Notes: generated by a model from the letters alone, not told the origin. 64,000 nt of DNA from Candidatus Hydrogenedentota bacterium (GCA_045863295.1 BTWA01000015.1:32001-96000); one strand, 5' to 3'; shown: positions 41,458-63,015, numbered from the stretch's first letter. A program made the numbers and translations.

Positions 41458-41534
41458 GGGCGGTTAGCTCAGCTGGTTAGAGTACTTGCTTGACATGCAA
41501 GGGGTCGGAGGTTCGAGTCCTCTACCGCCCACCA
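41458..41534 (+). tRNA. tRNA-Val(GAC)
   Basis: 77 nt; GGGCGGT/ACCGCCC acceptor stem, CTTGC-TTGACAT-GCAAG anticodon arm, GGTTCGAGTCC T-arm, encoded CCA. Confidence 0.98.
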
Positions 41535-41548
41535 AGCGTAAGTCATTC

Positions 41549-41993: not shown

Positions 41994-42045
41994 AATCTAC
42001 CGTTTGGCATACATTGCGGGACTGCGATAGCGGGAGGGTTTGGGT

Positions 42046-43239: not shown

Positions 43240-43317
43240 AAGCGGGCCCCACCACCCCCATTTTTCGAGCCTTGGGGCTCCGAAGCCTTGGCGTCTGTAA
43301 GATTATATAATTTCTGT

Positions 43318-44994: not shown

Positions 44995-45240
44995 TCACGG
45001 CGCTGCCGCCTTCAGCTTAGGCGCCTTCCGCTTCTCCTGGTCCTCCCGGTCTTGTTCCATCCTGGGTGGCTTGTCCGCATTCCTCACCTGGTCGTTGAGT
45101 TGCTTATCCTTGATAAACGGTGCGACTGACCCGCGTACCCCTTGAAGGACAACATAGTTGTTGTACGCTTCGGCCCGCGCCAGGATCTCCGCCCACTCGG
45201 CCGGATCCCCTTGCCCTGTCTGCCGGAGGCGGTTGCCTAT
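44995..45240 (-). other. Orphan second copy of the giant protein's C-terminal segment, in the -1 frame
   Basis: PAEWAEI...N...Q..RG...PFI...N...PR.E..R aligns by eye with the last ~75 aa of the 3082-aa ORF. Confidence 0.6.
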
Positions 45241-48200
45241 TTTGCCCAGGCCGGTCTGAAGTTGAAATCCGGCATCTTCTGTGGGACGTCTTGGTCGCGC
45301 GTCTTTTCGCTTCTGGGCGCTTCTTCCATGTTGTTTATCCAACGTCGGACCGTGTCCCCCGTAATGAACGGTACAAGTCCTTTCCGGTACTGTTGCGCAT
45401 TGATTTGAGCGTTCACTGTCCGGATATCCTCCTGGATATCCTCCCACGATTCAGGCGGGTTGTCGCGCTTCAATGAGTACCGTTTCACGCGATCGCGGAT
45501 ACGGTCCTTTATGCCCGTCCCGTCTTGGTTGGAATAAAGCCTCTGGATCGTGCCTTCGTCCCAGAGAATCTCACGCTTCTCGGAAATCTCGGCCGGGTTG
45601 AATCCAGCCGACCGGAGCAAGGTCGCATACAACGAAGGTTGAATCTGTTCCTTTCCAAAGAACACTGGCGACCCGTTCCCCTTGGTGACCCCGTACATGT
45701 ACTCTCGGTATGCCTTGAAAAGGTTGCTCGTGGCGCGTGGCCCGGCAAGCTCAGCGGCCATGGCAATATCGCCTCCGGCCGCTTTCTTTAACCCGGAAGA
45801 GACATCACCGACAGCTGCCATTGGAGCGCCGGCCAGTTCAAATACATTACCGGAGATCGCCGGCGTAAATCCGAGCGTTCCGCGCGCGTCGATGTTCAGT
45901 AGCCCGAGCGCGCCCGTGCGCACGACCCGCTCCGCTCGAACTCCAAACTTATTGGCTATCCACTCGTACAATGCGTAGTACGGTTCGTCGGGCGGCTCCC
46001 CTCCAAATGCGCGAAATGCCGCTCGAATAATTGGCTTCAGGATCATAGACGCGGCTCCGGCCACCACGCCACCTTCCAACCCAGCCACCATTATTGGAGC
46101 CACTGACAACCACAGAAGCGACGGCCAATCTCTTTTCTTAAGCGTGTGACCCAACAACTGTATGTGGTTTAACATGAACCCTTGAAATAAATAGGCGTTG
46201 CGCAAAACCTGCGGCGCTACACCGCCGCCACGCATCAGGTACGGCAGATTCTCCTTTCCGAACCGCGAATGGATCTTGTCGCTTATGTTCCGGGCCTCAC
46301 GAAATGCTTCATCTTTCTCCAATCCCTTCTTCCGGAGAATCTTGTATGTGGCCATGATAGTGGCGCCGCGGTTCAGTTGTTCCGCTTTGGAGAAGGGAAA
46401 CATAATCGTGTTGGTGGCCATGGTGTACCCGCGGCCAAGCGCGTTTACGTTACGGGTCATCTCTTGCGCGTAATCGTCATTGTCCCACCTGCGCCGTCGG
46501 ATCTCATCCAATATCTCACGGTCCTCTTCCGTAGCGGTACCTAACGTCCAATAGGCGGTGTACGCATTTGCGGCTTTGGCAGTGAGCATGCCCGCTGCCA
46601 CAATGTTGGTATCCGTAAGCGTGGCGATCCCGGGTGGCACAACCAATGCCAATGCAGAAAGGTTGTATGCGGCGGAAGACGGACTGGAAAGCATCTTGTA
46701 CGAGGTCAAACCCCGCAACACGCCCATAATACGTTCCAATTCCTCTTCATTTCGCAGCACCTCATGCAACAAGCTCATGGCTTCTTCGTATGCCAGCGGT
46801 TGTTTGGCGCTGCTTAATCGGCGTTCACGCACCTGGCGCCGGTATTCGCGGTAGAGTTGCAACCGTTCGTCGGCCTTCTCTTCCCTATCCATCTCGTCAA
46901 AGCCATCCGGCTTGTTTCGCTGAAAATACTGCTCCAAGGATTCTGTTGTTCCCATCACGACGTTCATGGCATCGCGTCGCATGATGGCCCGAGCGGATCC
47001 GGATGCGGCCGCCGCCGCCGTGCTCACTACCGCCCTGTACGCGTCTTCGTCATACCCAAGGTACACAGCCTTACCTTTGGCATCGTTCCGTCCAATCTTG
47101 CGAGAGCGGGATCCACGGCTGTGCAACACGTCGGCCAGTCCTTGTGCCACCCCTTGGGTGTACAAGCTCACAAACGCACTATTCACGGAATGGTGGGAAA
47201 ACCGGGACAGGATATCTCCCTGCAGTCCCCTATTGGGCCGTTCGAAATGCCACACACCCGGATCGTTTTCAGTCAGTCCAAGCTCGGCCCGAGTCGAGTC
47301 AGACTCCTTTCCGTACCGGTGCCCGCCGAACTCCATCATGATCCGATCATTCGCCGGCGTCTTCGGCGCGACAATCACCAGGTGGCGCTCGCTCTTTCCG
47401 TCCTTCCGCTTGTACTTGACGACCTGTGCACGCATGCCAAGGCTTTCGAAACTGGCCTCGTCGTTGGTGGATTCGCGGACCCGGTCTATGGCTGTCTCGA
47501 ACACCTCGTTCAGATTAGCGATGTCTAACTCGCCAAATACCTTTTCTGATGGCTTGTTTGTTAACCGGTTTTCCGTCTCATACCCGCGCGCATGCAATAC
47601 CGCCTTGCCAACGGCCCGGCCAATCTTCGTATCGTAATGCTGCCGGCGTGGGTTTTCACCCTCCTTTTCAGCGAACAAATGGTATCGTCCGTCTTTTCGT
47701 ATTCGCGGCATGTAGTGCCCGCGACGGTCCCCCATCCGCTTAAGCGCCTCACGCAACGTCAGTATTTCACGGCTGCCGTCGTCGTTATAGATAGATGTCG
47801 TACCCTCCGGCTCCCCATTTTGCCGGCGCAACTCTTCCGCGACCATGACATCATTGGCGAAGATGTTGTATACGTTCCCGTTCATGCGGCGAACCGCCAA
47901 CAACGCCCTGGCCGCGCGTTTCGAATGACCAGCCGCCTTATAATCGTGCGATTCTCTCACCCAGGCATTGTCCCAAGCCTCTTGCTCATTACTAAACCGG
48001 GCCAGTTCCCGCCGTTTGCCGTTCTCGTCCGGCATGGAAAGCACAACGTACTTGCCGTCTTCGTCTTTTACCAAGTACCCTTCGCCATTTCGGTCCCGTT
48101 CAAATAAGTACTGGTTTAGAGCCTTGTACTCCTTCCGGATGCGCGACCAAGCTGCATTCGGTGCCTTGACATCACTGGGTGTCACCATGGCGATCGCGCG

Positions 48201-51200
48201 CAGATGGGACAGTTCCCCGTCCGGCCCAAGTCCCCCTGTCACAAATTCCACCAGGTCCACAGCGTTGTCACGCATCCGATCGATGATGCCCCAAAGCTCC
48301 TTCAACTGCGGTACCTTCTCAGCATTCCAGAGGGGCGTGCCGGCAATCTGGCTGATAAGCCCGAGCTCCGGCCGACCGTCTGTATCGCTAAAAGCGGCGC
48401 GGATGGCGGCAGCAAGTTCCTTCGCCTTCCCGAATACTTTCCAGGCCCAGGCCTTAGAAGAGTCCGCCTGTTCCTGTTGCTTCGCGGTCATGGCGGGCCC
48501 GTAGACCACCGAGAACATCGGCCCTTGCGCGTCCGGCCCTTCCGTGGTATCATCTTTTTGGAATCCCGTCCGCTGAGAGTCCGGAATCATTGAGGCGGAG
48601 GGCGTCGCGCTGGGGTTCTCCGGAGTCCGCCCAGTGGCATTCCTTTCCCGCTCCACCCTCATATTCCACTGCAGTTCGTTATCATCCAAGGGAAAATCGG
48701 CATCAACGTCTCGTAACCTATTCCCAACCGAGAACATCGGCCCTTGCGGATCTCCGCTTTCCGTGGTATCATTTTCTTGGAATGGCGCTTGCCGAGATCC
48801 CGGAATCGTTGAGGCAGGTGTCGCCGGGTTGGGGTTCTCCGGGGTTCGCCCAATGCCGTTTCTCTCCCACTGAATTCGAAAGTTTCCCTGTTTACCGGGT
48901 CCCTTGGTTCCATAAGGGAATTGCGTTATCAATCGTCCTCCCGGTATGCCCTGATCTACCACCTGCCCGTCCTTGCTGACGACAACCATATGCTTCGTAT
49001 TGTCGTTGTACTCCCGCACATAGATGTCGTTGCCAGATTCTGGATCCCGCAATACTGCCGCTGCATTTTGAAGTGTATTAGGCACATTTGGAAGCCACTT
49101 GGCTTTGGATAGATCGAGTGACTTCTTTGAGTTATCCCAAATGAGATGCTTGACACGCTTCGCCAAAGAGCCTTCCTCTGTATTGTGAAGCAACACTGCA
49201 GTGCCATCGGCGGCGGAAATCGTCTCCGGCCAAGACATGAACTCACGCCCGGCTCGTTCGATAACCTTCGCAGGAACCCCGGTAATGTCCAGACTTCTAG
49301 GCTTTACGTCGTCCACCGGGAAATCCTTCGTATCCCGAAGTCGGTCCCCAACCGAGAAAGCCGCGCCTATGCCCTTCATCCCCGGCTTTCGGGCAAACAG
49401 CCTGCCATTCCGGAATTCCAGTTCCGCATTGATGCCGGCCACGATCGCGCCGTTACCGCGCAACCGCGCAAACAGCCGGCGGAAAAGCATCTGGATACGC
49501 CTCAGAATTCCCGGCCGCGTTTGAAGCGCTTTCGCAATCCTCTCTTCCTGTTGCTTGTGATATTCGGCGATTTCCTCTTTGGTTGCGGTATCGCCTGGGA
49601 CCGGAATGTCCCCTGCGTACTTCCCAGCCAACGCAGACCACTCGGCATCCGTGAATAAACCCAGAGCGCGCGCCCAATGTAACAATTCATGCCGCAATGT
49701 GTCGGTCGGTAACTGGCCCGCTTCGTTCGCAATTAATATTAGATCGGCCGCGTCAATCCGGTTACCCTGACCATCCTCTAATTCCACAGCCTTAAAGTAA
49801 CCGGCAATACCCATTTCCCGAAGTTCGGCGTCCGACTTGTCTTTTAACTCATGGTTGGTCTTCCGAATTTTGTTCAGGTAACTCGGCGTCGGGTAGATCA
49901 TGTCGACGACGCGCAGTAAAAGCGTGGACCCGTTCTTGGCGGTTATCTCAAACTCCCCATCCACTTCGCGTACCGTAGCGCCTGGAAGCGCCCGCAGTAT
50001 GTCTTCCTGGGTCAGTTGTCCGGAAGGCGCTGTGCGCAAATCCCCGCGGTAAGCAGCATCCATTCTTGCCACGGAGAACATATCCGGCTGTCCGCCCTTT
50101 TCCGGTTTCGGTCCACGATCAGCCTTGGAATCATCGAATAATGCCGTCTGCTCCTGCCCCTCCAATTCATCCAGGAGCGCGTCCACTTCCTCTGTGGGCC
50201 GTTCAGTGCGCTTCAAGACATCACGCTGCGCGCGAACCTTCTCTGCGGCCTTGGACTTGCTCCCATACAGACGTATTGCATCCTGGGCGTCCTGGGAAAG
50301 CGTTGTAGCCGGTTCCGGTACAACTTCCTGGAGTTCTTTGTCCTGCCGTGGCTTTGCGTCCGCAGTCCTGGATCCCGGCTTCGGCGCTGACGTTTTTGCC
50401 GCTTTCTGTTCGCTTTTCGCGTCAGGTTTATTGGCTGCGGCTTTAGCCTCGTTTACTTTAACCCGGTCGGCCTCTTGTTGCTGGTATTCCTCTAACGCAT
50501 ACGGATACAGATCCGATGAAGTCTTGACGATCTCGACTCCTTCAAAGCCCTGGCCATCGTCCAAGCTGATTCGTTCGCCATCAAGCAATTCAGTACCGCC
50601 CCACGGCTCTTCATCGGCCCGGTACCATTCACCGTTCCTGTAAACCAAGTCGCCAGTAGCCAACTCATCTTCGGTCAACAACTGGGGATCGGAGAGTTTT
50701 AGAGACGCAATCTCCTGCTTAGCCCGCTCTTCGGCCGTCTTTTGCGGTTGTCGGCTGTCATACTCCTGGTAGGATTTCTCAATCTCCTTGTCAGTGGCTT
50801 CACGCGCTCGTCCGAGAAACAACCTGCGCAACTCAGAGGGATCCGCATCCGTTCGCAACAATCCCATCTCCGCCGCTTCCTGAATCGCCTCGTCCCATGT
50901 GTACATCCCGTCTTTACGGATCACTCCGGGCGGAAAACCAAAGTTGCGGGCCTCGGGCGCGCCGAAATCGTCCGCCGTCAAGTCTGTAGGCGGTTTTAAG
51001 CCGGCATCCCGGATCGTATTGCGAAATTCCTGCAAAGGTGTGGCCGCGCTTGGACGCTTTCGTCCTCTTGACCGTCCGATTGCTTCAACCAGTTCCGCTT
51101 GAAGGTCGGCAATCCGTTGTACCACGGCCTGGTGCGCCTCGGACGCTTTACTACCCTGTGCCTTGGCGAGCTTACGCGCGCGTTTTCTGGCGGACTTCAA

Positions 51201-54200
51201 CTCTTCACGGATGGCTTTCTTAGATCGTGGCTTTGCTTTCACTCCAACTTTGGCCGCTTTAGTGTCATCTGTAACCGGCTTTTCGCTTTCAACTTGCGCT
51301 ACCTCTGGCGCTTTTGATGACACGGATTGTGTCTCAACTCCGGCACTTGGAAACTCTTTGACCATAGGCAAGATTTTCGCAATCGGCTTATTGAACCGGA
51401 TAACGCGCAATCGAGATTTCCCGTCTTTGATGGCGGCGGCCCATTGGTGATGACCGTCGATCACGTAGTTGTCCGAGGACACGAGGATAGCCCGATCCCC
51501 ATCATTGAACTTTTGTGCAGCCCGCACCTTAGCCGGCGAATACTCGGCCTGGGTCGCCTTCAGTTCGTCCGGCGCCACTTCCACGGATTCATGTTCGACG
51601 TCGCGCGCACCAAGAAACTGAGTCAAAGCCCCTCGATGCTCGGCCTTTACCTGTGGCATGTCTTTTCGCGAGACATTCAGCGGCTTGAACATCTGAGGGA
51701 ACGGCCGCCACCCCACTCCACCAACTTTAAGCTCCGATCCTCCAATAGCCTTGCCGGTCGGTTTTTCGGTACCGGGTTTGGTCGTCACAGCGCCAAGCGC
51801 CGCGTCTATACGAGCCATGGCGGCGCGGCGGCGGTCATTCAGCTTCCTATTCTCCGCCGCCTTCGCCTCCGCCTGTTCCAGAGTGACCTGTGGAGACGCT
51901 TTCTTGATGTCCTCCGCTGTCTCCGGCGTCTCGCGAATCCCTTCCTCTAACCGTCCCCGCATCGAACGTGCGCCTGTCGGAGTCAAGCGATCCCTGTCAG
52001 TCCGCTTCGCACGCGCCTCCGCCGCCAACGCCATGCCCTCCGGCGTTGCGGATGCCTGATACTCCCAATTCCTCAACTCCGGCCCAGTTAAACCGGCCGC
52101 TTCATTCGCACTCATCGACATCGGATCGAGTCGCGTGGAATCCTCCCCGGTCACGCCGGCGGCGCTCGGTTGGGCAGTCGCCTCGTAGGAAGGCGCATTA
52201 ACCGATTGTGGCGCCGCCGGTGCAACCTCGGGAGTCCTCATTGAAAGCGCTTGCGCAGGCTCCTCGGGCGTGGTGTTGGGCGTTACCGCTTCCGGCCCTT
52301 GGACTTGCCCTTGCATTTCTTCATCGAAACCACCTCCTTGTAGTTGGTTAGACGAGGTATCCTGTCCCCCGCTTGTGAGTACATTTGCTACTATATGAGC
52401 GGTTTGTGGTGCGTTTGTGGGTACAATCCCGGGCGTGATTTTGCCACGGGCGGTCCGTACCGCTTCCTGGAGACGTTTCTTGGCTCCCTTGCCACGATAC
52501 TGCTTGTCGCCCGCATCGATCCCCAGTTCCGCCCGCATGTCGCCCATGCTCATGACGTCTATATCGGGCAGTTCCCCTTCGTCGACGGCATCGTCGCGGT
52601 ACGAGTATTCGAATTCTCCGATCGGCTCTTCGTCCGTGGCTGGCGCGGCGGGATGTACCGTTCCGTCCAACAGGTCCACGGCCGCGAACTCTTTCGATGG
52701 ATCGGGTTCTGCTATGGCTCCGAATACGGCCTTGGCCGCATCATCGCTCACCGCCTGATCGAATAGCGTATACAGCGTATCGGCGCGTTCATCGGGTTTC
52801 ATGCCGATCACTTGGTCACGAGGCATGCCAAAGGCTTGAAGACCCCTGATAATTGGCCTGTGACGCCGTACATTCTGGGCCAGGAAGACAGCGGGCGAGT
52901 ATGGAGTGTCGGACCCCTTGGCCAACATCATACCAAGTGCAAGGTCCGGAGCCGCTTGTCCGAATTCCCACACTTGTTCGGGAATATCGGCTCGTTGCAG
53001 ACGATCATGAAGGTCGCGGCGTAATCGGGCATCCTGTGCCGCTTTGAATAGCGGGCTCGCCGCATACGAACCGCCTCGAAACAGCGCCGTACCCAACACC
53101 ACTTCTGGAAGCGAGTCCACCCAACCTTGCAAGGCCGGTTTTAGATTGGACCAAGATACGCTCTCGTAATCATTATTGAGGTTAAGTAGACCCTCAAGAA
53201 TCTGTTGCGAGCTTTCCTCAACCAGCGCTTCAGTTGCCACATCGTGGACACCAACGGCCCGTGTAAACTTCTTGGTCGCATTTCCAAGCGCAACGGCGTT
53301 GTCCGGAACCTTCAGCTTACTCATCGCTTTCCGGATTTGAGATGGCATCACCCTGGCCGCGCCTTGTTTCACAAGGTTCTCCGCAGCCTCGCCCGCACCA
53401 ACAAACCCAAGCTTTCGCGCTGCACCCCTGCCAAGCTTGCCGAGCCCGCCACCCACCAGGTCGCCAAGAAAAGTCTCGATTGTAAAAGCAAGTACGGCAC
53501 CAGTTATCGCTTTTGGAGCTGCCTCGTACCATGGAGCCGCTTCTTGCCGCAACACCATATTGCCATTCGAGTCGATCGTGGCGTCGTCACTTCTAAGTTC
53601 GTAATAGCGGGTCAATGTTTCTGGCAGAACAAACCCGACGCCAAGCGTGCGTTTTCCGAGCGCTATACCGCCTGCATATCCAATCATTTCGTCCGCGGTA
53701 TTGCCGGCCATACCCAATACCGTAGAACCCCGCTCATTTCGTTCCTGTCCAGCGCGTATCGAAATAGCGGCACGTTCCTGGGCAACCTCATACAATCGCC
53801 GCTCCAATGCTTGCCGGGTTTCCGGTGTGCGTTCTTTCGTAAAGGCCCTATAGACCTCGTCTTCTGTGTCTCCAGAGATATGATGAAAGGCGGATTTCAA
53901 GTCACCATCGTCCAATTCGCGGATGTTCTGAAAGCCCGTTTCTTGGTTGCCTAGATGCTTGGCCTGTGCGACCGTCCTGCGCGACAACCCAAAAGGTTCG
54001 TATCGCGCAAATGTCTTACCAACGATCCCCGTGTTGGATTCCTTTAACCCAGTCGCCGCCTCGATCGACGCTTGTCGAGTTTCTGTGAAACCCATTTTTC
54101 CCTTCGGTTTGCCTTCCGGGGGTTCGAATTCGGGCTTAATTGGACGGAAGGCGCCTTCACCAGCCTTTCGCTGACTAAGCGGAATGTAGTCTGGTGCGGC

Positions 54201-54485
54201 TGAAACGAGCTTGTAACTGTCCAATTCCGGATCGTCTGCAGACACAAGACTGAATCGTTTTTCGGGTGTTGTCGACGCTTCAACAGGCCGAATTCCGCTT
54301 CGGTTACGAGTAACGTACCGTGGATCGGCTGTCGCAAGGTTTTGCTTTCTTAAATCAGGATCGTCAGCTGAAATAAGAGAGAAGCGCGGACTATTCGCCG
54401 AGGTCGTCATATTATTGGGCGCACGAAGTATACTTGTATCGTCATCAGCAACTTCGTCAGCCGGGATAAGTGTAATCGGACTCAT
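45237..54485 (-). CDS. Giant polyvalent virion-ejected protein (3082 aa) with ParB/Srx-like, HExxH zincin-like and BECR-nuclease-like modules and a PLxRFG-like C-terminal region
   Basis: ILVSSDNYVIDGHHQW; TLRHELLHW; KHLIW...KWLPNVPNTL...IYVREY; HYMPRIRKDGRY; last gene of the virion module. Confidence 0.8.
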   Translation of the reverse strand: MSPITLIPADEVADDDTSILRAPNNMTTSANSPRFSLISADDPDLRKQNLATADPRYVTRNRSGIRPVEASTTPEKRFSLVSADDPELDSYKLVSAAPDYIPLSQRKAGEGAFRPIKPEFEPPEGKPKGKMGFTETRQASIEAATGLKESNTGIVGKTFARYEPFGLSRRTVAQAKHLGNQETGFQNIRELDDGDLKSAFHHISGDTEDEVYRAFTKERTPETRQALERRLYEVAQERAAISIRAGQERNERGSTVLGMAGNTADEMIGYAGGIALGKRTLGVGFVLPETLTRYYELRSDDATIDSNGNMVLRQEAAPWYEAAPKAITGAVLAFTIETFLGDLVGGGLGKLGRGAARKLGFVGAGEAAENLVKQGAARVMPSQIRKAMSKLKVPDNAVALGNATKKFTRAVGVHDVATEALVEESSQQILEGLLNLNNDYESVSWSNLKPALQGWVDSLPEVVLGTALFRGGSYAASPLFKAAQDARLRRDLHDRLQRADIPEQVWEFGQAAPDLALGMMLAKGSDTPYSPAVFLAQNVRRHRPIIRGLQAFGMPRDQVIGMKPDERADTLYTLFDQAVSDDAAKAVFGAIAEPDPSKEFAAVDLLDGTVHPAAPATDEEPIGEFEYSYRDDAVDEGELPDIDVMSMGDMRAELGIDAGDKQYRGKGAKKRLQEAVRTARGKITPGIVPTNAPQTAHIVANVLTSGGQDTSSNQLQGGGFDEEMQGQVQGPEAVTPNTTPEEPAQALSMRTPEVAPAAPQSVNAPSYEATAQPSAAGVTGEDSTRLDPMSMSANEAAGLTGPELRNWEYQASATPEGMALAAEARAKRTDRDRLTPTGARSMRGRLEEGIRETPETAEDIKKASPQVTLEQAEAKAAENRKLNDRRRAAMARIDAALGAVTTKPGTEKPTGKAIGGSELKVGGVGWRPFPQMFKPLNVSRKDMPQVKAEHRGALTQFLGARDVEHESVEVAPDELKATQAEYSPAKVRAAQKFNDGDRAILVSSDNYVIDGHHQWAAAIKDGKSRLRVIRFNKPIAKILPMVKEFPSAGVETQSVSSKAPEVAQVESEKPVTDDTKAAKVGVKAKPRSKKAIREELKSARKRARKLAKAQGSKASEAHQAVVQRIADLQAELVEAIGRSRGRKRPSAATPLQEFRNTIRDAGLKPPTDLTADDFGAPEARNFGFPPGVIRKDGMYTWDEAIQEAAEMGLLRTDADPSELRRLFLGRAREATDKEIEKSYQEYDSRQPQKTAEERAKQEIASLKLSDPQLLTEDELATGDLVYRNGEWYRADEEPWGGTELLDGERISLDDGQGFEGVEIVKTSSDLYPYALEEYQQQEADRVKVNEAKAAANKPDAKSEQKAAKTSAPKPGSRTADAKPRQDKELQEVVPEPATTLSQDAQDAIRLYGSKSKAAEKVRAQRDVLKRTERPTEEVDALLDELEGQEQTALFDDSKADRGPKPEKGGQPDMFSVARMDAAYRGDLRTAPSGQLTQEDILRALPGATVREVDGEFEITAKNGSTLLLRVVDMIYPTPSYLNKIRKTNHELKDKSDAELREMGIAGYFKAVELEDGQGNRIDAADLILIANEAGQLPTDTLRHELLHWARALGLFTDAEWSALAGKYAGDIPVPGDTATKEEIAEYHKQQEERIAKALQTRPGILRRIQMLFRRLFARLRGNGAIVAGINAELEFRNGRLFARKPGMKGIGAAFSVGDRLRDTKDFPVDDVKPRSLDITGVPAKVIERAGREFMSWPETISAADGTAVLLHNTEEGSLAKRVKHLIWDNSKKSLDLSKAKWLPNVPNTLQNAAAVLRDPESGNDIYVREYNDNTKHMVVVSKDGQVVDQGIPGGRLITQFPYGTKGPGKQGNFRIQWERNGIGRTPENPNPATPASTIPGSRQAPFQENDTTESGDPQGPMFSVGNRLRDVDADFPLDDNELQWNMRVERERNATGRTPENPSATPSASMIPDSQRTGFQKDDTTEGPDAQGPMFSVVYGPAMTAKQQEQADSSKAWAWKVFGKAKELAAAIRAAFSDTDGRPELGLISQIAGTPLWNAEKVPQLKELWGIIDRMRDNAVDLVEFVTGGLGPDGELSHLRAIAMVTPSDVKAPNAAWSRIRKEYKALNQYLFERDRNGEGYLVKDEDGKYVVLSMPDENGKRRELARFSNEQEAWDNAWVRESHDYKAAGHSKRAARALLAVRRMNGNVYNIFANDVMVAEELRRQNGEPEGTTSIYNDDGSREILTLREALKRMGDRRGHYMPRIRKDGRYHLFAEKEGENPRRQHYDTKIGRAVGKAVLHARGYETENRLTNKPSEKVFGELDIANLNEVFETAIDRVRESTNDEASFESLGMRAQVVKYKRKDGKSERHLVIVAPKTPANDRIMMEFGGHRYGKESDSTRAELGLTENDPGVWHFERPNRGLQGDILSRFSHHSVNSAFVSLYTQGVAQGLADVLHSRGSRSRKIGRNDAKGKAVYLGYDEDAYRAVVSTAAAAASGSARAIMRRDAMNVVMGTTESLEQYFQRNKPDGFDEMDREEKADERLQLYREYRRQVRERRLSSAKQPLAYEEAMSLLHEVLRNEEELERIMGVLRGLTSYKMLSSPSSAAYNLSALALVVPPGIATLTDTNIVAAGMLTAKAANAYTAYWTLGTATEEDREILDEIRRRRWDNDDYAQEMTRNVNALGRGYTMATNTIMFPFSKAEQLNRGATIMATYKILRKKGLEKDEAFREARNISDKIHSRFGKENLPYLMRGGGVAPQVLRNAYLFQGFMLNHIQLLGHTLKKRDWPSLLWLSVAPIMVAGLEGGVVAGAASMILKPIIRAAFRAFGGEPPDEPYYALYEWIANKFGVRAERVVRTGALGLLNIDARGTLGFTPAISGNVFELAGAPMAAVGDVSSGLKKAAGGDIAMAAELAGPRATSNLFKAYREYMYGVTKGNGSPVFFGKEQIQPSLYATLLRSAGFNPAEISEKREILWDEGTIQRLYSNQDGTGIKDRIRDRVKRYSLKRDNPPESWEDIQEDIRTVNAQINAQQYRKGLVPFITGDTVRRWINNMEEAPRSEKTRDQDVPQKMPDFNFRPAWAK

Positions 54486-55646
54486 TCACTCCTCCTTTAG
54501 AAAGTACTTCTTGCCATCCTGCCAGACGTACCAGCGGCCAGTGTCCATATCTACCATGGCATCCGGATACGACTTGCGGATGTTCGATTCAAGCGCTTCT
54601 TGCGCCATCTGTGTAGTTATTTTTTTGGGCTGGATTGATTCTTCAGACGATTCTTCCGCCGATTCGGCCGACGCTGCGCCTTTCCAGATTCCAAGCCTAT
54701 TTGCTACCTCACGGTACAATGTGGCGTCGTCTATATCCGGATCGTATTCCCGTATATCGTTCAATGCCTTATGAAAATCCTTGGCCATCTGCGTATGCTT
54801 TTTTTCATCATCGAGAAACCCGCTTGTATCGACTCCGTACTTTTGAGCTCGATTCATTGCCTCGGTAAAATAGGTCTTAGACGGCCTTCCTTTGATCGGT
54901 TCCAAGTCCGCTATGTCCTTCGTTTCCTGGTACCGCTTCAGAGATTCCGGAGTGTACTTGCCGTACATCGACATTCGTTCCCGTCGTTGCCCTTCAACGG
55001 TGCGTCCGAGGGCATCGGAGAATTCACGGTTCTTATCGAATGCGAGACGGTCCTTACCAAGTTGAATGTCGGCATCCATACCTTCCTGCCGCAAGGCCAG
55101 TTCTTGTTGTGCCCGTGCCTCGTCTTGGGCCATGCGTTGTTCCTGGAGGTCCAACCCTTTCTCCCGCAACACATTGTCGGCTTCATGCAACCGCCCACGG
55201 ATGGCGAGTTCCACCAAAGTGCGGTTCCGTTGCCAGATGCGTTCGTCTTGTTGTTCCAACCGGTTGGCGAGCTGGTCCCGCACACCAAACGTGGTCAACG
55301 TCTGCGCCTTTGCCCCTTGCATCGCCCGTCGCCGGATTCCCATGGCAGTGCCGCCCGGTGTCGTCGGACCTACTCCAGGCGATAGCGCGGATATCATTGC
55401 CGCCTCGGACGCCGAGTCCTGCAGCGCATCCCGCTCGCCCACGCCCTGCATGCGCGTCATGTAGGTCACATCCGGTACCGGTGGACCGCCACCCGGGCGC
55501 GTGCTTTTCAACTGCCGTGGCATGGGCGGAGTGGTAGCCGATGGTGTGGCCTGGGCCATGCCTGGATCTGCCGATGGCACGGCCGCAGCCGAAGCTCGGC
55601 GCGTAGACTGTATCCGGCGCCGCTGGTGGTAAGGTGTCTCGAACAT
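54486..55646 (-). CDS. Putative phage ejection/internal virion protein
   Basis: AGGAGA RBS before MFETPY; Gln/Arg/Ala-rich coiled coil; abuts the giant gene. Confidence 0.65.
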   Translation of the reverse strand: MFETPYHQRRRIQSTRRASAAAVPSADPGMAQATPSATTPPMPRQLKSTRPGGGPPVPDVTYMTRMQGVGERDALQDSASEAAMISALSPGVGPTTPGGTAMGIRRRAMQGAKAQTLTTFGVRDQLANRLEQQDERIWQRNRTLVELAIRGRLHEADNVLREKGLDLQEQRMAQDEARAQQELALRQEGMDADIQLGKDRLAFDKNREFSDALGRTVEGQRRERMSMYGKYTPESLKRYQETKDIADLEPIKGRPSKTYFTEAMNRAQKYGVDTSGFLDDEKKHTQMAKDFHKALNDIREYDPDIDDATLYREVANRLGIWKGAASAESAEESSEESIQPKKITTQMAQEALESNIRKSYPDAMVDMDTGRWYVWQDGKKYFLKEE

Positions 55647-55659
55647 GAAAGGTCTCCTG

Positions 55660-56892
55660 TTAGTCGCCTGTACCGACAAGGCCGACGTACTCTTTTTCCG
55701 GGTCAGCGGCGGCGCCGGCATAAAGAAATCCGCTGAACAAATACGGGTTCCCATCCGGGGACCCTGGGCGGTCAAAATAGGGTGAAGCGTTCTGGCTTAT
55801 GGTCTTGCCGTCTTCGCTGTAGGAAGCAAACGAACCTGGCAATGTGGGTTCATACACCGCAACCAGATACAGTTCGTCCGGGTCTCCTAAATCCACATCC
55901 ACATCAATGGCGAAATAATCAGCGGGCATCGAATCCGGAGAAGGGTGCGCATCGGGAGTGCCTGCATATGTTTTCGAGGACAAGAGCGTATGAGAAAAGA
56001 CCTCGCTCCACGATCGAGCCGAAGGCGACAACGCCTGCTGTGTTTCGAACGCCGCCTGGGTCACCTGGTACAAAGACCAGGTGCCTGCCCATTGACTGGA
56101 AACCTTGGTATAAGTTCCGCTTAGGTAGGATTCGTACCGTGGATCGGTTTCTTCCAATGCCACACTGAACCAGAGTTTGTGACTATACGGACGTTCCGCT
56201 GCCTGTGAACTGCCGTCATACACACACTTAATCCACCGTTGAATGCGTCTGTACTGCCAGGAGCCCGCCAATCCAGGTCCGTCCGTGGCGTTCCTGTATG
56301 AGAGAGCGGTACCGGCGTTTCCGATAGTCTCGGCAGAAAATGAGGATTGAGTGCTGGATATGGTGAACCCTTCCGAAGTGTCAACCGTTATAGTCCGCCG
56401 CAAGTACCGAATTCCTTTGTGGAAAGAAATCACCACGTCCTCGGGCACGGACAAGAGGGCCTGGATCGCCAGAATGATGTCATCCCACTTTTCCGGAAGG
56501 TCTAAGTCACCAAGGGCTTCGGGATATGTAAGCGGACCGGCCACGGTGAATGGGGTGGCATCGTGCTTGTCCAGTGCGTACACCTGGGAGTCAATGATGG
56601 TTTCTAACGCCGCCTGCATCTCGGGTATCAGTAGGTCCCTGATCCGATCCCTGGGAAATGGCGGTACTTCCAACGCGGCAAGCGCGTCCGGATTGCTCGT
56701 GTCGGCGATACCGGTGAACACAGTCTCTGTCAGTCCTGCGAAGGCCTCACGCCCACTGATCTCTTCCAGGAGTTGCATCCAGACCTTGCTTGGATACCAG
56801 TTGTGCATACCGAGGGACGGGTTATCCGTCTTACGGAACCTGATCCACTCCGTTTCCCCGTAGTCGTATATGTCGCCGCCAACGCCTGGCAT
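55660..56892 (-). CDS. Hypothetical phage virion protein
   Basis: 410-aa ORF coupled to the upstream gene by TGATG; aromatic, beta-rich C-terminal half. Confidence 0.65.
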   Translation of the reverse strand: MPGVGGDIYDYGETEWIRFRKTDNPSLGMHNWYPSKVWMQLLEEISGREAFAGLTETVFTGIADTSNPDALAALEVPPFPRDRIRDLLIPEMQAALETIIDSQVYALDKHDATPFTVAGPLTYPEALGDLDLPEKWDDIILAIQALLSVPEDVVISFHKGIRYLRRTITVDTSEGFTISSTQSSFSAETIGNAGTALSYRNATDGPGLAGSWQYRRIQRWIKCVYDGSSQAAERPYSHKLWFSVALEETDPRYESYLSGTYTKVSSQWAGTWSLYQVTQAAFETQQALSPSARSWSEVFSHTLLSSKTYAGTPDAHPSPDSMPADYFAIDVDVDLGDPDELYLVAVYEPTLPGSFASYSEDGKTISQNASPYFDRPGSPDGNPYLFSGFLYAGAAADPEKEYVGLVGTGD

Positions 56893-57548
56893 CAGACCGC
56901 ACTCCCTACTTCACCGGTTTTTGTCACGAAGTCGCTGCAGGCCCTCCAGACCGCCCGGTACTGGTCGCCAAACCACAATCCTTCCGGAGTGGCAATAAGG
57001 AATGGTCTCCCCGGAATCTCGGGAAACACTTCTCCAGTCTGATACTGAGGAATTTCGAACCCCGACCCGGATTGTTCCCAGTTCACTGGCAAGTCACCTA
57101 CAACCAACTCTGTACGCGATCGATGCACGGTCATTACATCGGGATCCGAGATACGCGCATCGGGCGTTTTGGCCACAACCACTTCGGACCCATCCTCCTC
57201 TGTGACCGGGTTGTAGAACTTGCAGAGATAATGCGTGCCTTCATCGGACAGGATGCGAACGTACCGGTGAATAGGAAATTTGGCTTTAAGTAAGTCAATC
57301 TCTTTCTGGAGTTTCCGCGCTTTGCGTTCAAGCTCCTCGATGCGCTTGCGCAGACTGGTATCGTCGTAGGCGTCCGTTTCTTCCGCGTCGGTACCAGACT
57401 TGATTCCGGCCAGTTCCTGCCAAAGCTCTTCGATGCCCGCCTGTAAACTGGCCACGTGATCGGCCACCGCCTGGTCCGCGATTCCGCTGACCCCTTCAAA
57501 CCCGGGACCCACCATCTTCGGCCGCTGCCGTACGATCTCGTCGCTCAT
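56892..57548 (-). CDS. Hypothetical phage tail-associated coiled-coil protein
   Basis: ATGA overlap with the nozzle gene; LRKRIEELERKARKLQKEIDLLK coiled coil. Confidence 0.65.
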   Translation of the reverse strand: MSDEIVRQRPKMVGPGFEGVSGIADQAVADHVASLQAGIEELWQELAGIKSGTDAEETDAYDDTSLRKRIEELERKARKLQKEIDLLKAKFPIHRYVRILSDEGTHYLCKFYNPVTEEDGSEVVVAKTPDARISDPDVMTVHRSRTELVVGDLPVNWEQSGSGFEIPQYQTGEVFPEIPGRPFLIATPEGLWFGDQYRAVWRACSDFVTKTGEVGSAV

Positions 57549-60500
57549 CGCCGGATCGCCTCCAGGCTCATCCCTAAAGCCAGTTCATGCACTTGCGTGG
57601 TCGATGGGTAGATCACGTCTACTTTCACTTGCCGGTCCGGTCGCATGCGCGGCAACCAGATCGACCTCCCATCGTGCGCGCTCGATGTCAACAGAACGGC
57701 ACCGGCTGCGCTCGTGAACCGGACTTGAACGGGGTACGCGTCTGCTGTGACACGCATGGTTGCGAATGCGGCCGGCGATGGAAACAGCACATACTTGCCA
57801 AACCAGCTCCACGGCTCGCGATCGCGCGTGATGAATACCACCCCGTTCTTGACCGGGTACCATTCACGGGCGAGCAACACAAGGGAGTCGATGTTGGCTG
57901 TTCCCGGGTCAATGTCTATATCCCATCCCTTGCCATTAGGAAGGCTTGCGCTGAATTCCGCCTCGTCAGCGCTGGTCACGGACAGGGTTTGTTGCACAGC
58001 CCCGTCCAGAATGAGTCGTATGGGAATTGGGTAAGCACTGGCGGCCAATCGCGCCCCGGACCAGCTCCCCGTATCCTTGAACTCGCCGTGAATATTCCGC
58101 CATGCAACCCGCCCGTTCCCTGGAATGACGAGGCCTCCGCCTTCTACGGGCCGGGAATCTTCTCCGAACATGTAAGCCGCACTTACAAGATGGTCTTCGC
58201 CCGCGAAATCGAATTGGACCGTGCGCACGTGATACGTGTTGTCAATCCGGACTTCGGTGTTGTCCGAAACCGTGAACCGCTTCGTACGCGTCGTGGCGTC
58301 GTTCACGTACAGGTCCAGGGAGACGGTCTCTGATGTACTCACCTTAAAGCTGCGCGGGATCCAGGGAGCTGCGAATTCGAATATCCCGTACATCCAGGAC
58401 GGAAAAAGGGCACTCCCTACCCGGGATTCAATCACGTCTCGCGCGGGTATGTGCACATATGGCATGAGGGTCACCACCCCAACGTCCGCCGTCGTCTCAA
58501 TGTCGACTTCATACGTGGAGGCCTTTGGCATGGATTTCGGTAGCGTGAACGCGTGGCCAACCACAACTCGTTTGCTCAACACCAGGTCGCCGTCTGCATA
58601 GAAGTGCAACCACACCGGGTTGGAAACCAGGTCTGGATCGGAGGCCTGTGCTGGCGCAGCCACAAACCCGCATGCGAAGGCGTTCGGAAACGTAAACCGG
58701 AACACGTTCTTGCGCAATCCCGGCCCGGTAATGACGGCAGGCTGTCCCTCGGCCAGAATCCTCGGTTGTTTGAAATAAACGTTCGCCCGCTTGACCAGGT
58801 GATCGTTTCCGCCGAAATCGAACGAGTACTCGCTGGTACCGGCCACGGCCGTAAACCGCACTTCTCCCGGTTCGGTCACGGAAATGGTTTCTGTGGGTTC
58901 TGTATCTCCATCCTTGAACACCCGGAAGGGTATTGGGTACGACTCTGCGAAAACGTCCACGGATGTCGGCGTCATTCGGTCGATGGACTGCCACTTGGTG
59001 AACAGCCAGGGCGACACCCCGGCCTCTGGCCGTACCAGGGGCAGAATATCCCCTGCAAAACTCTCGCGCCGCCACGGGATGAGCAACAGACGAAATACCC
59101 GGGCCTGGGTGTAGATGGACCGAATCCAATTGGCCGCGCGTGGCAGGGATCGTGGAAATTGGAATACAAACCCGTTTGCAATCATTTGATCGAACACGAC
59201 GGCGCCGTCAGCGGTCAGTTCAAGGCGCACGCTCTCGTAATTCGTAGCGCCGATGGCTCCGCACGCAAATCCGCCACGGTCCGGAAACTTGTAATGGACG
59301 CCGATGAGGGAGTCCGGATCCGTCTCGTCTATCCCACCGTCAGAGACATTCCGTTCCACCCGCACCTTGATGGCGATGTCCCTGATTTCGTGGTCCTTGT
59401 CGCTGGCCACGTCGAATTCGACACAGCCGGTGAGTAGAGACGACGCGATCGCGTGTTCATGCGGGCCCGACACGGTCACGGAAAGGGTAGCCGTCTCAGC
59501 CCGGTCGTAATACAGGTTGATGGTCTGCGGATAGGCGTCCGCTTCCACCGTGATGGCCTGTAGGGCAGTGGGTTTCTCCAACTCGTACACCTTGCCTGCC
59601 CAGGGTGGAATCGGACCGTCGTTCAACTCGCGAATGACGGCGCCGGCCGGTACCTGTTGACGCCGCACCAGTACCAGTCGATCGATCGCCTTGTCGCAAT
59701 GGGCGTCCACCATCCACAACCGGCCGCGCCGCGTGCCTCGCGCGAACTTCTGGTACCCGGTACCCGTCGTGGTCACTGCCGCCGCAGGCGCACCGTCTGC
59801 GAACAGGCGCACGTCCGTTTCACCGCCGTGTTGCGCCACCACCTGAATTCCAGAGAGCCGGTCCGGTTGCCCCATGTTCACCCAAATGGACCGCCAGGTC
59901 CCTACTCGATCCGGAGTCAGTTCAAGCGTACCGCCGTCCATGGAAAGAATGGACCGTTCATAGGCTTCGAATCGGCGCACCACGCCAACACTGCGCATAT
60001 GGAAATACCATTCATACGCGGCCGTAACCTCGCTGTCGTCGGCAGGATTTGTTACGAGAGGAATGGGATCCTTGCCGGTGACTTCCAGTGTCTTGATCAG
60101 CACGCCGTCCGCGTATACGTCCAGCGAAACGGTCTCTGTGCCGTCTACCCGGAAGTGGTCAAAGACGACGGGCGTGTCATAGAGAAAGACCTGGGACCGG
60201 AATTCCCACGCCGCCGGCGTCAAGGAATCGTACGTGGTGATGCTTACTCCGTTCCGGAGATCGATACAAAGGTTTCGCCGGCTATCCGATTCTGTCGTGT
60301 ATTCGACCAGTATGCAGTTGTCCACGGTCTTGCACGTCATGTGCTCGGGAGAAAGCGCCATCCACTGGGCGCGCGTGTAATGATCCTTGGTGATGATCTG
60401 CGGGGCTCCGCCGTTGCTGGCCGCCAACCCGCCCTGGGTCGGCCAGAACACCGTTTGCCCAATCCGGCATAGACCGCGCACGTTCAGAAGCGGGTGCGTA

Positions 60501-61810
60501 TCGGACAGTCTGGTTTTGGACAGCAATGCAGGGTTTCCACCGGCCTCTCCATAGAGTATCTGCCGGTCATCCCCTACTCGGTCGAACACCAGCGTGGTGT
60601 TGGATCCCGCGAGCGCGATTGCCATCGGGTTGCGGTATGGAGTACTCCATTCTTTCGGCCAGGCGTGAAACCGGATAATGTCGGATTTCCATACCTTATC
60701 GTCGTACAACGCCACCGCGTACTGATTCGGATGCAGGAAGCTGCCGCGCAAGAACGTGGACTTGGTCCCGCCGTGGTTTCCAAACGGCGGAATCGGTTCG
60801 TCGGTTTGAGGCGTATCCGTGTAGTCCTCATACGTGGTTTCCCCTGATGGAATGTCATCCAGGAGCACAAAATCATCCCGGCCCGTGGTGGACCGGTATA
60901 TCCGGAGTTGGCTATACCCGGACGGTTTAGGCGTGTTCAACGTGAGAATCTGTCCCGGCTGGACAATGAGGCGATCGCTCTTCTTCGAGGGCGGGCCCTC
61001 AATCGGCGTGTTCTCGTCGATATCCCCAATATTCACCGAGGTCACGTAGTAAAACTGCTGTTGCCGCGGCCGCGTATAGTTCATGTCGAAGCGGAACACT
61101 ACCCAACAGCCGCCAGACCGGATCGTGATGTCCTGCGTCTCGACCACGTAAGTCTCTTCGTACGTCGGCCCGTACACGTCGGCTGCCTGCATGTTCGCGT
61201 ATACCTTCGCGTTCTTGTCGTACAAAGGCACGCTGATATTCGGTAGCTGCAGGTCCGACTCGCTCGCTACCGTGGGATAGGTTTGCTCCAATATGGGTCC
61301 GCCGTAGTCGTTCCCGGCGTCGGCGGCAAACGCAAACCGGTACTGTGGACCTTTGAAAAAGTAGGGGTGCTCCGGGTCAATCGTGAATTCATAGGTGTTC
61401 AGGCCAAGGAAACAAATAACAAACATGGACGCTTCGTTGTATGCCACCTGGCTTATGGTCAATGCGTCGGCGCGCAGTGCCGTTACTTCCATTTCGCCCG
61501 TCACGTCGCTGAATTGGCTTACCCAATCGTAGGCGAATATTTGCAGCCATTCCTCCGGATTCGCGATATACGCAAGCGAATTCTGTGTTGGCCGGGATGG
61601 TTTTGGAATTTTGAACACGTCCGAGGATGGAACCCCGGATTTAAGGTACGGACCTTCGTGCATGGTGTTGTACGGGCCCGGCAGTCGTAACCGCTTGATG
61701 GCGCCGCCCGAGATGTCGCAGTTGTGGGCGAGTTGCGCCGCGCCCTCGGGCAGTTTGTCCGAGGCAATCATCGGGACGATGCCGCGAAACCCGTTCAGTC
61801 GTATCGGCAT
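57545..61810 (-). CDS. Podovirus tail nozzle-like protein with about nine tandem C-terminal domains (1421 aa)
   Basis: N-terminus FRGIVP...LPEGAAQLAHNC, EGPPS, RIYRS, HAWP and WxxLSP recall nozzle-type proteins of 933W-like podophages; repeats from residue ~535. Confidence 0.75.
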   Translation of the reverse strand: MPIRLNGFRGIVPMIASDKLPEGAAQLAHNCDISGGAIKRLRLPGPYNTMHEGPYLKSGVPSSDVFKIPKPSRPTQNSLAYIANPEEWLQIFAYDWVSQFSDVTGEMEVTALRADALTISQVAYNEASMFVICFLGLNTYEFTIDPEHPYFFKGPQYRFAFAADAGNDYGGPILEQTYPTVASESDLQLPNISVPLYDKNAKVYANMQAADVYGPTYEETYVVETQDITIRSGGCWVVFRFDMNYTRPRQQQFYYVTSVNIGDIDENTPIEGPPSKKSDRLIVQPGQILTLNTPKPSGYSQLRIYRSTTGRDDFVLLDDIPSGETTYEDYTDTPQTDEPIPPFGNHGGTKSTFLRGSFLHPNQYAVALYDDKVWKSDIIRFHAWPKEWSTPYRNPMAIALAGSNTTLVFDRVGDDRQILYGEAGGNPALLSKTRLSDTHPLLNVRGLCRIGQTVFWPTQGGLAASNGGAPQIITKDHYTRAQWMALSPEHMTCKTVDNCILVEYTTESDSRRNLCIDLRNGVSITTYDSLTPAAWEFRSQVFLYDTPVVFDHFRVDGTETVSLDVYADGVLIKTLEVTGKDPIPLVTNPADDSEVTAAYEWYFHMRSVGVVRRFEAYERSILSMDGGTLELTPDRVGTWRSIWVNMGQPDRLSGIQVVAQHGGETDVRLFADGAPAAAVTTTGTGYQKFARGTRRGRLWMVDAHCDKAIDRLVLVRRQQVPAGAVIRELNDGPIPPWAGKVYELEKPTALQAITVEADAYPQTINLYYDRAETATLSVTVSGPHEHAIASSLLTGCVEFDVASDKDHEIRDIAIKVRVERNVSDGGIDETDPDSLIGVHYKFPDRGGFACGAIGATNYESVRLELTADGAVVFDQMIANGFVFQFPRSLPRAANWIRSIYTQARVFRLLLIPWRRESFAGDILPLVRPEAGVSPWLFTKWQSIDRMTPTSVDVFAESYPIPFRVFKDGDTEPTETISVTEPGEVRFTAVAGTSEYSFDFGGNDHLVKRANVYFKQPRILAEGQPAVITGPGLRKNVFRFTFPNAFACGFVAAPAQASDPDLVSNPVWLHFYADGDLVLSKRVVVGHAFTLPKSMPKASTYEVDIETTADVGVVTLMPYVHIPARDVIESRVGSALFPSWMYGIFEFAAPWIPRSFKVSTSETVSLDLYVNDATTRTKRFTVSDNTEVRIDNTYHVRTVQFDFAGEDHLVSAAYMFGEDSRPVEGGGLVIPGNGRVAWRNIHGEFKDTGSWSGARLAASAYPIPIRLILDGAVQQTLSVTSADEAEFSASLPNGKGWDIDIDPGTANIDSLVLLAREWYPVKNGVVFITRDREPWSWFGKYVLFPSPAAFATMRVTADAYPVQVRFTSAAGAVLLTSSAHDGRSIWLPRMRPDRQVKVDVIYPSTTQVHELALGMSLEAIRR

Positions 61811-61813: not shown

Positions 61814-62176
61814 TCATTTTCCCACCCTGGGCGACAACCCGAGAAGCTCCGCGAGACACGCACTGGCAAACACGCCAGATAGTTGTATGTTCGCCGCATC
61901 CTGCCCTTCCTCGGATAGGGCCTTCGAACATACCCACAAGGCCAATGGCTCTTTGCCGCGACGGTCTAACGTGAGGGTATCGTTTAGGGTAGTGGGCTCC
62001 ACGATCTCTGCGATCGTGTCGTCTGCGGTCAAGTAGTAGTGCGGAGCGTAGTGTTTCACTGCCCGCTGCGCATCGTACAGGTACCCAAGCAGCGAGGCAT
62101 CGGTCCAACGGTACGCGCCCGCCGTGTCATCGTGTAATTTCTGGCGCACAAGCGCAATGACGTCGCCGGCCGTCAT
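61814..62176 (-). CDS. Phage head-tail adaptor-like protein (DUF6682-like)
   Basis: MTAGDVI..VR..L.D....RWTD..LL.YL.DAQR motif. Confidence 0.7.
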   Translation of the reverse strand: MTAGDVIALVRQKLHDDTAGAYRWTDASLLGYLYDAQRAVKHYAPHYYLTADDTIAEIVEPTTLNDTLTLDRRGKEPLALWVCSKALSEEGQDAANIQLSGVFASACLAELLGLSPRVGK

Positions 62177-63015
62177 ACAAACCTCCGTCGTCGAGGCTGA
62201 ATCACACCTGGCCCGTTTGCCGTCAGTATCTGGCGTTTGGCCTTCACCATCGCTTCGCGGTACCCCAAAAGGCGTTTATTGGCTTCGCCCGGGTTGCTCC
62301 ACGGCTTTCCCGGCATCGAAAGCAGATCCGCCAACGCTCCATCCGCCAACCCATCGCCATACTTGGTAATGAACCACGAGGGATAGACGGTGCAGGAAAC
62401 GTTCGGTTCGAACACCACACTGGGCACAATGTCCAAATCATCCACGCCCGCTTCCGCGCACAAGGTCAACAGGGTGGCTTCGTTGTTCACCCTGTAGTTC
62501 ACCCGGAGACCGTCTACCGTGACCTGGTTGACGCGCAGAATTGTGGCGTCGTAGTCCGTTGCCAACTCATATTCGTCCTCGCCTTCTTCTGTGGGGATGG
62601 CGTCCAGGTCCTCTTGCCATATACCGGTTTTCACGCAGAAGTCCCGCGCAGTCCGGCGTAGCACCTGTTTCACGATCGCGTCGTCGGCGCCGGCATGCGA
62701 GAGAATGAGCGGAAGAACGTCGTACAGGTTTCCCGTGTTGGGAGCTCGCTTGGACCACGGAACATGGTAATTCTCGCCGCCGTACACAAAGTGGAACGAG
62801 TACACGTATTCCACGTAGGGAATAACGTCCTCAATTTCGTAGGAGTACAGCCCTGTGCCGTCGTGGGTCACTGCGGTACCGGCGTCTACAACCACTTCGC
62901 CGGTGTCGCGCCGCTTCACTCCGTAGGCCGCACTTCCGTTGCTGAGCGCTGCTGCGGAGGCGTTGGTCAGAACGCCATCGATCTTGAAGCTGGCGCGAAT
63001 TGTCATGTTGGCCAT
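62173..63015 (-). CDS. Phage tail adaptor/ring-like protein with an extra N-terminal beta domain
   Basis: C-terminal LP.I...LRRTARDFC.KTGIW...GALADLLSMPGKPWSNP; N-terminal ~95 aa with GTGLYSY. Confidence 0.65.
   Translation of the reverse strand: MANMTIRASFKIDGVLTNASAAALSNGSAAYGVKRRDTGEVVVDAGTAVTHDGTGLYSYEIEDVIPYVEYVYSFHFVYGGENYHVPWSKRAPNTGNLYDVLPLILSHAGADDAIVKQVLRRTARDFCVKTGIWQEDLDAIPTEEGEDEYELATDYDATILRVNQVTVDGLRVNYRVNNEATLLTLCAEAGVDDLDIVPSVVFEPNVSCTVYPSWFITKYGDGLADGALADLLSMPGKPWSNPGEANKRLLGYREAMVKAKRQILTANGPGVIQPRRRRFV

Follow-up and report, generated by a model that had tools for sequence, protein, structure and literature searches.

The stretch analysed (the window) comprises 64,000 nucleotides of DNA from a Candidatus Hydrogenedentota bacterium (GCA_045863295.1, BTWA01000015.1:32001-96000). 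A single open frame of 1421 amino acids on its minus strand (57545-61810) is a podophage nozzle gene of the type known from Ralstonia phage GP4, and the encoded protein departs from all solved nozzles with which it was compared in the number of its platform domains: nine in tandem at the C-terminus. The favoured reading, to which a probability of about 0.65 was assigned, is that these units stack between the propeller and the adaptor and that the last one docks the adaptor, so that six chains would build a longer tail, with the repeat number determining how long it is.

Identity of the nozzle protein

An earlier note on this DNA, made by a model from the sequence, had described a podovirus nozzle with about nine copies of its C-terminal domain at 57545..60210. 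This span covers residues 534-1421, and the gene itself extends to 61810. Its parts are as follows.

57545..61810, minus strand: nozzle gene, 1421 aa (amino acids), GP4-type with nine platform domains; phrog_511 match at 5.6e-36
61676..61810, minus strand: residues 1-45, N-terminal strands completing platform unit 1; aligns to GP4 4-43
61001..61675, minus strand: residues ~46-270, start of the propeller and family-specific beta-rich insertion; confident all-beta model
60209..61000, minus strand: residues ~271-534, bulk of the nozzle beta-propeller; phrog_511 and GP4 matches
59897..60208, minus strand: unit 1 (535-638), propeller-side; W-x-S start kept, RLP and C-terminal motifs lost
59603..59896, minus strand: unit 2 (639-736), A-like "second" class
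59309..59602, minus strand: unit 3 (737-834), B type
59009..59308, minus strand: unit 4 (835-934), A type
58718..59008, minus strand: unit 5 (935-1031), B type
58397..58717, minus strand: unit 6 (1032-1138), A type; superposes on the platform of GP4 when the linker strand before it is included
58103..58396, minus strand: unit 7 (1139-1236), B type
57806..58102, minus strand: unit 8 (1237-1335), penultimate class
57548..57805, minus strand: unit 9 (1336-1421), terminal; A-x-x-Y-P loop, LPR and C-terminal helix as in single-platform nozzles; proposed adaptor dock

That the N-terminal half belongs to a podophage nozzle was borne out by sequence, family profile and structural model. The closest solved relative is the GP4 nozzle (8JOV_A: six chains of 577 aa, with the two adaptors gp81 and gp82), which was matched at 7.7e-11 by sequence and at 2.3e-41 by family profile. 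A model of residues 1-834 (predicted local distance difference test score, pLDDT, 92.7; predicted template modelling score, pTM, 0.73) matched 8JOV_A with Z 28.5 and a root-mean-square deviation (rmsd) of 2.8 over 330 aligned residues. It was followed by the nozzles of Pa223, crAss001, SU10, P22, VP1, Sf6, Pam1 and T7 (Z 14-20 for Pa223, crAss001, SU10, P22, Sf6 and T7). These matches stopped at approximately model residue 619, corresponding to the end of unit 1, near the C-terminus of the targets. At the other end, profile positions 3-42 aligned to GP4 4-43 (i-E 8e-4) and the structural match began at residue 1-2. The protein has the N-terminal platform strands, the central beta-propeller and the C-terminal jelly-roll platform of a nozzle, with nine units in place of the single C-terminal platform of the solved members. 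The beta-rich stretch of ~220 aa encoded by 61001-61675 is conserved in the family and lies largely outside the GP4 match. Neither Pfam nor NCBIfam offered a matching family (nothing in Pfam scored below E 0.06), and the ESM Atlas yielded sub-0.9 leads only, including one cluster with PF25675 Phage_nozzle in 27% of its members.

Delimitation of the nine units

The nine tandem units of ~100 aa were confirmed by self-comparison and by hidden Markov models (HMMs). When 100-aa pieces were compared with their own protein by phmmer, off-diagonal matches were obtained (conditional E down to 6e-7), spaced by ~100 aa from residue ~500; fragments starting before residue 501 gave none. The repeats were not seen in a BLASTP self-comparison, and profiles were needed. 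The units start at residues 535, 639, 737, 835, 935, 1032, 1139, 1237 and 1336, and their pairwise identity is 9-29%. The HMMs counted nine units scoring 42-87 bits in round 2, with these units in the training set. Nearly all units of homologues scored 20-107 bits (three were weaker: 13, 16 and 16), and reversed sequences reached at most 4.5 bits. Within the genome the unit HMMs matched the nozzle gene only.

The alternation of A and B units pointed out in the earlier note is real: units 3, 5 and 7 of this protein cluster with their counterparts 3, 5, 7, 9 and 11 in a homologue with 13 units (support 0.99). Similarity at the DNA level, previously called not evident, is indeed faint, yet some is present in the form of four families of direct repeats, short (23-36 nt) and diverged, whose copies stand 600-1500 nt apart, close to multiples of 300. 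A single contig of run X1, possibly the source sample, contains the entire nozzle gene; in runs X2-X4 only small pieces of the gene were covered, and the joints were not seen.

The unit as a platform jelly roll

Profile and structural matches to GP4 identified the repeated unit as the nozzle's own C-terminal platform domain. The best PDB match of a profile made from 39 units was the GP4 C-terminus (E 0.005). A model of units 6-9 (pLDDT 94.8, pTM 0.88) suggests that their arrangement is confidently fixed, and its top match among 48,161 chains was again 8JOV_A (Z 8.4, rmsd 2.0, 84 aligned residues), by a small margin since the next rows were unrelated jelly rolls with Z 7.7 and below. In the 8JOV_A match one model domain spans GP4 residues 2 to 570, indicating that the second strand of the linker stands in for the N-terminal strand. 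Covariation agrees with this role in that it couples the linker strand to the strand that ends the following unit. The alternative that the linker mimics N-terminal residues 25-42 was dropped because the structural match puts the linker on the first N-terminal strand. Judged from the model, each repeat would be a self-contained eight-strand jelly roll with the sheets BIDG and CHEF. In T7 and Pa223, too, strands from both the N- and the C-terminus are reported to make up the platform. The structural matches listed include no siphoviral tube protein, and the units are jelly rolls.

Copy number among relatives

The repeat number varies among uncultured relatives from 1 to 19 copies, in line with the earlier proposal. 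At E<=0.001 the unit profile matched 1331 of 1.84 billion representatives, and only the best 150 of these were used, so the family sample is enriched for repeats. From 172 proteins 99 nozzles with the N-terminal motif and the propeller were obtained, after removal of 8 cluster-mates and of 5 proteins in which the terminal motif is absent. The HMM counts in these 99 were as follows (units: proteins).

0: 2; 1: 36; 2: 3; 3: 5; 4: 2; 5: 4; 6: 2; 7: 10
8: 3; 9: 6; 10: 2; 11: 9; 13: 13; 15: 1; 19: 1

Two or more units were present in 61 of the 99 complete nozzles of this repeat-enriched sample. Among the 58 nozzles with at least three units the count was odd in 49 by HMM, and in 52 after seven counts had been set by hand from the length. 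A strict odd-number rule was rejected, nine of the 58 being even by HMM alone. The usual order of units is first, second, (B,A)n, B, penultimate, last, and the main clade grows by A/B pairs, in steps of two. Sister proteins differ in copy number (e.g. 7 and 13). An exception to the odd counts, the ten-unit nozzle of L006/L007:10001-15052, has no penultimate class and carries a long insertion in unit 7. Another unit of the "second" class stands in mid-array in P0037 (2423 aa, 19 units), suggesting duplication of a multi-unit block.

In a tree of the nozzle core, 54 proteins of the present type separated (support 0.97) from the single-platform nozzles and a four-member lineage. The latter has 2, 6, 7 and 11 mostly uniform units without A/B alternation, and is possibly an independent expansion. 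Alternation as a requirement was rejected, since this second lineage repeats one unit type. The lineage consists of P0108, P0067, P0064 and P0045, plus the fragments P0094, P0062 and P0068; units 3-8 of P0045 look recently duplicated. Three single-platform nozzles (P0020, P0021 and P0168) reach 1300-1500 aa through N-terminal insertions, and length alone is therefore no marker of the repeat family.

When the repeat region was compared with 50,697 phage records, no cultured phage matched, and with this query none of 134 other genomes of the host's phylum did. Scans of loci with one protein at a time, or with an alignment of two sequences, gave no match. A further scan of genome contigs produced one 31-residue match only and no named host for any multi-unit nozzle.

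Partition of the two sheets and covariation along the array

The fate of canonical positions was followed in the 33 columns that at least half of the 36 single-platform nozzles conserve, by comparing 54 first with 54 last units (p<0.01). Eight of the 33 columns were kept more by first units, and all of these lie on strands C, E and H or their turns (CHEF). Seven, every one of them on D, G or the D-E loop (BIDG), persist more often in last units. The other 18 did not differ at this threshold. R50, for example, was present in 7/54 first and 45/54 last units, whereas S3 was present in 37/54 first and 2/54 last units. The C-terminal motif was found in 20 of the 36 single-platform nozzles, in 3/54 first units and in 31/54 last units. 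By eye, the uniform-unit lineage shows the same split between first and last units.

Between consecutive units, an Arg at the end of strand G or I covaries with a Glu on H and a Tyr on E of the next unit (z 5.4-8.2). The couplings from unit n to unit n+1 (the latter primed) include R53-E61' (6.7), R50-E62' (8.2) and R50-Y32' (7.2); the linker strand is coupled to the following unit through E91-T4' (7.9) and R92-E73' (6.7). With shuffled partners the maxima were 5.3 and 4.1 (four shuffles each). First units are without that Arg, and in 70% of second units an Arg replaces the Glu. Judged from these alignments, the BIDG side of unit n is joined to the CHEF side of unit n+1 by covariation. The partition and the n to n+1 covariation together indicate that the BIDG side of a unit is covered by the next unit, and that only that of the last unit stays free and canonical. 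The CHEF side of unit 1 retains what contact with the propeller would need.

Proposed arrangement and alternatives

The platform is the adaptor-binding part of the nozzle in T7, SU10 and Pa223, according to the available text of the reports (PMC6702177, PMC9509320, 10.1101/2025.06.11.659172). A single platform has its place between the propeller and the adaptor; most simply, then, adaptor binding would fall to the last unit and the remaining units would occupy the space in between, and the sequence data suggest that the stack is placed there, on the head side. The apical platform of a GP4-type hexameric nozzle would have been tandemly amplified, with a short linker hairpin supplying the strand that is given by the N-terminus in ordinary nozzles, and a short loop replacing the site of the propeller insertion in each repeat. 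Packing would be directional, each unit n placing its BIDG side under the CHEF side of the unit that follows. The propeller would carry unit 1, and in unit 9 alone the BIDG side would remain open to the adaptor ring. Together, six of these stacks would reach from adaptor to propeller, walling the DNA channel, and the repeat number (1-19) would translate into tail length without a tube monomer or a ruler. The gain per unit is perhaps 2-3 nm, a guess from the size of the sandwich.

The identity of the protein, the fold, the counts, the residue partition and the n to n+1 covariation are established. As to the stacked rings envisaged in the earlier note, stacking along the tail is favoured by the partition and the covariation, while six-fold rings and the binding of the adaptor by the last unit are what we infer, together with an adaptor-facing BIDG sheet, the axial direction and a lateral seal between chains.

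Several points weigh against the stacked arrangement. Few couplings per junction exceeded the controls, the alignments were shallow (effective number of sequences, Neff, ~200 for 195 columns), and one coupling between units n and n+2 reached 6.1. The couplings would equally fit a shingled end-on-face packing, which could curve off the axis. The p-values of the partition are overstated because related proteins were treated as independent. The fold is a generic jelly roll, which CUB domains and carbohydrate-binding modules (CBMs) also match at Z 6-7.7. No neighbouring gene visibly scales with the repeat number in the five distinct loci with downstream genes. The sheets were assigned from model secondary structure and covariation, and the presumed direction of the stack follows from these assignments and from BIDG being the presumed adaptor-facing sheet of GP4. 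A residue-level list of nozzle-adaptor contacts was not found in the accessible parts of the T7, SU10 and Pa223 texts and of 10.64898/2026.08.19.745834, nor did the A1002 spreadsheets return adaptor-nozzle contact rows for three search terms. The geometry is settled neither by PMC10272179 nor by 10.64898/2026.08.19.745834, as far as their available text goes. Finally, the extra beta-sandwich domains of other nozzles (SU10, Xacm4-11) are described as projecting radially or swinging.

One alternative is that only unit 1 lies between propeller and adaptor, and that units 2-9 leave the tail as rigid jelly-roll rods. Such outward arms, which we regard as unlikely, would serve as stalks, glycan-binding adhesins or fibre docks, the conserved face of the last unit binding a fibre or a receptor. 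Labile repeat counts, as in the sister proteins with 7 and 13 units, are typical of fibres. CUB, CBM and related jelly rolls are matched at the Z values given above (a generic likeness, as the fold shows no function), pairs of domains resemble the SIDT1/2 ectodomain (177-183 residues, rmsd 4.0-4.7), and the Xacm4-11 nozzles have four radially protruding beta-sandwich domains according to the part of that report available. However, in this arrangement unit 1 would have to hold the adaptor although seven canonical positions in one of its sheets, still kept in the last unit, have been lost from it, and that sheet covaries with the next unit. Moreover, the best structural match is a nozzle platform and not a lectin, and the accessible descriptions of SU10 and Xacm4-11 treat their extra domains apart from the platform.

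Somewhat less probable still is that the chain turns back beside the nozzle as a sheath, or straightens on adsorption and lengthens the tail distally. There are precedents: four nozzle domains of SU10 straighten, adding 28 nm to the tail, and the nozzle-rope of A1002 runs 300 Å along the tail. These elements, however, are described as insertions in the propeller or the fibre dock, not as platform copies. The partition between first and last units also counts against this explanation, and the pTM of 0.88 for four units suggests that there is no hinge between units 6 and 9, although the lower pTM of the model of residues 1-834 allows hinges nearer the nozzle. A neutral or non-functional expansion, or an assembly artefact, would agree with the lack of a match to the repeat region in cultured phages and with no particle having been seen, but appears very improbable: multiple units occur in most complete nozzles of the repeat-enriched sample, with open frames and position-specific unit classes, and the prophage retains both att sites and a full gene set. 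Mis-assembly is contradicted by the low identity among the units.

The prophage and neighbouring genes

The nozzle gene belongs to a prophage of 60,815 bp (60.8 kb) with a GC content of 0.564 (genome 0.566). It sits among portal, adaptor and large ejection-type genes, the ejection role being suggested by position and size; terminase, portal and major capsid genes lie upstream. A 49-bp copy identical to the att core in the window marks the other prophage boundary (G000:C15:134253-134301). Downstream of the nozzle gene the order is 218, 410, 429 and 3082 aa, followed by the integrase.

41487..41535, plus strand: att core, 49 bp, in the 3' part of tRNA-Val(GAC) (41458-41534)
42040..43239, plus strand: tyrosine integrase, by family matches
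45237..54485, minus strand: 3082-aa giant protein, candidate large ejection protein; phrog_2859 and phrog_11358 matches
54486..55775, minus strand: 429-aa open reading frame (ORF), no family in scans; candidate ejection protein by position
55660..56892, minus strand: 410-aa protein, unassigned in family scans
56892..57548, minus strand: 218-aa protein, N-terminal coiled coil, directly 3' of the nozzle gene
61814..62176, minus strand: 120-aa adaptor-like protein, homologue of GP4 8JOV chain 2, profile E 1.9e-8
62173..63015, minus strand: 280-aa adaptor-like protein, homologue of GP4 gp81, E 7.1e-5

The two adaptor-like genes lie directly upstream of the nozzle gene, a position conserved in related loci. 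Two such adaptor-like genes were found, as in GP4, and further, divergent ones may exist. The 120-aa protein is without the middle domain of its GP4 homologue and consists of the helical part only (107-120 aa in six loci, compared with 220 aa in GP4). The gp81-like adaptor has an extra N-terminal beta domain of ~95 aa, which is common to L004, L008, L013 and L015 and absent in L006. No PHROG match to a tube or tape-measure protein was obtained among 51 ORFs in or beside the prophage, many of which were without a family. By its position the 218-aa protein is a candidate plug or needle; an ESM Atlas search with it yielded no clear relative. In the 3082-aa protein the phrog_2859 and phrog_11358 matches lie near residues 820-1100, an internal duplication is apparent around 1830-1990, and a match to the PLxRFG domain (NF032893, 1.3e-21) is below the curated cut-off.

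In five related loci, genes of 120-140 aa with a similar appearance are located upstream of the nozzle gene, singly or in pairs; in the window no such gene stands between adaptor and nozzle.

L004:9080-9896
L006:9609-9980
L008:4429-5431
L013:2104-2493
L015:9193-9612

A DUF2335/phrog_3996 membrane protein is encoded on the opposite strand between the giant gene and the integrase (44399-44980) and has a moron-like appearance. Short direct and inverted repeats of about 60-130 bp (~81% identical) are located downstream of the integrase at 43300-43800. Outside the prophage, 24922-27468 encodes a host lytic transglycosylase, MltD-like, with several LysM-type repeats.

Comparison with known systems and implications

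The GP4 nozzle shares with the present protein the sequence and structure of propeller and platform, both adaptor homologues and the type of C-terminal motif. It differs in having one platform instead of nine, in lacking the extra N-terminal insertion, and in the middle domain of its second adaptor. In T7 gp12, P22 gp10, Sf6 gp8, Pa223 gp59 and the crAss001 muzzle the platform is likewise built around an inserted propeller, but each of these has one platform. SU10 (Kuravirus), the A1002 nozzle-rope and Xacm4-11 have extra domains within the nozzle polypeptide, as here; in the available portions of those reports none is described as a tandem copy of the C-terminal platform. CUB and CBM jelly rolls and the SIDT1/2 ectodomain share the fold and a similar packing of two domains, at 3-13% identity, Z <=7.7 (in the background range) and without a sequence link.

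The discussion of a 2026 structural paper on A1002 (PMC13730344) names three ways in which podophages acquire long tails, each of them relying on tube or ring proteins that are separate from the nozzle. The phi29-like collar tube, the helical tube of N4, DEV and A1002, and the adaptor rings of crAss phages and Pa223 achieve the outcome proposed here, a long non-contractile tail without a tape measure. The proposed stack would work most like the ring stacking of crAss and Pa223. The known routes, as described in the parts of the sources available, use separate 12-fold proteins, whereas here the layers would be six-fold, covalent and counted by the gene. On balance the nozzle probably represents a fourth route to a long tail: a six-stranded tube of covalent platform layers, its length hard-coded by the domain count, with 1-19 layers in nature, a change by two layers at a time in the main clade, and a possible separate expansion in the second lineage. 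No title or abstract start describing tandem platform repeats turned up in the literature, in a search with subscription journals mostly outside its coverage.

If the stacked arrangement is correct, encoding a tube as nozzle domains in tandem would add a fourth route, one that needs no length ruler, and would offer an uncomplicated blueprint for protein nanotubes whose length can be programmed. Whichever explanation holds, no tandem-platform nozzle was found in the searches made. Tail length would be proportional to repeat number, with a natural series of 1, 2, 3, 5, 7, 9, 11, 13 and 19 units. This series shows a plausible path from short to long tails by internal duplication, in which the two faces of one ancestral domain have been divided between the first and the last copy.

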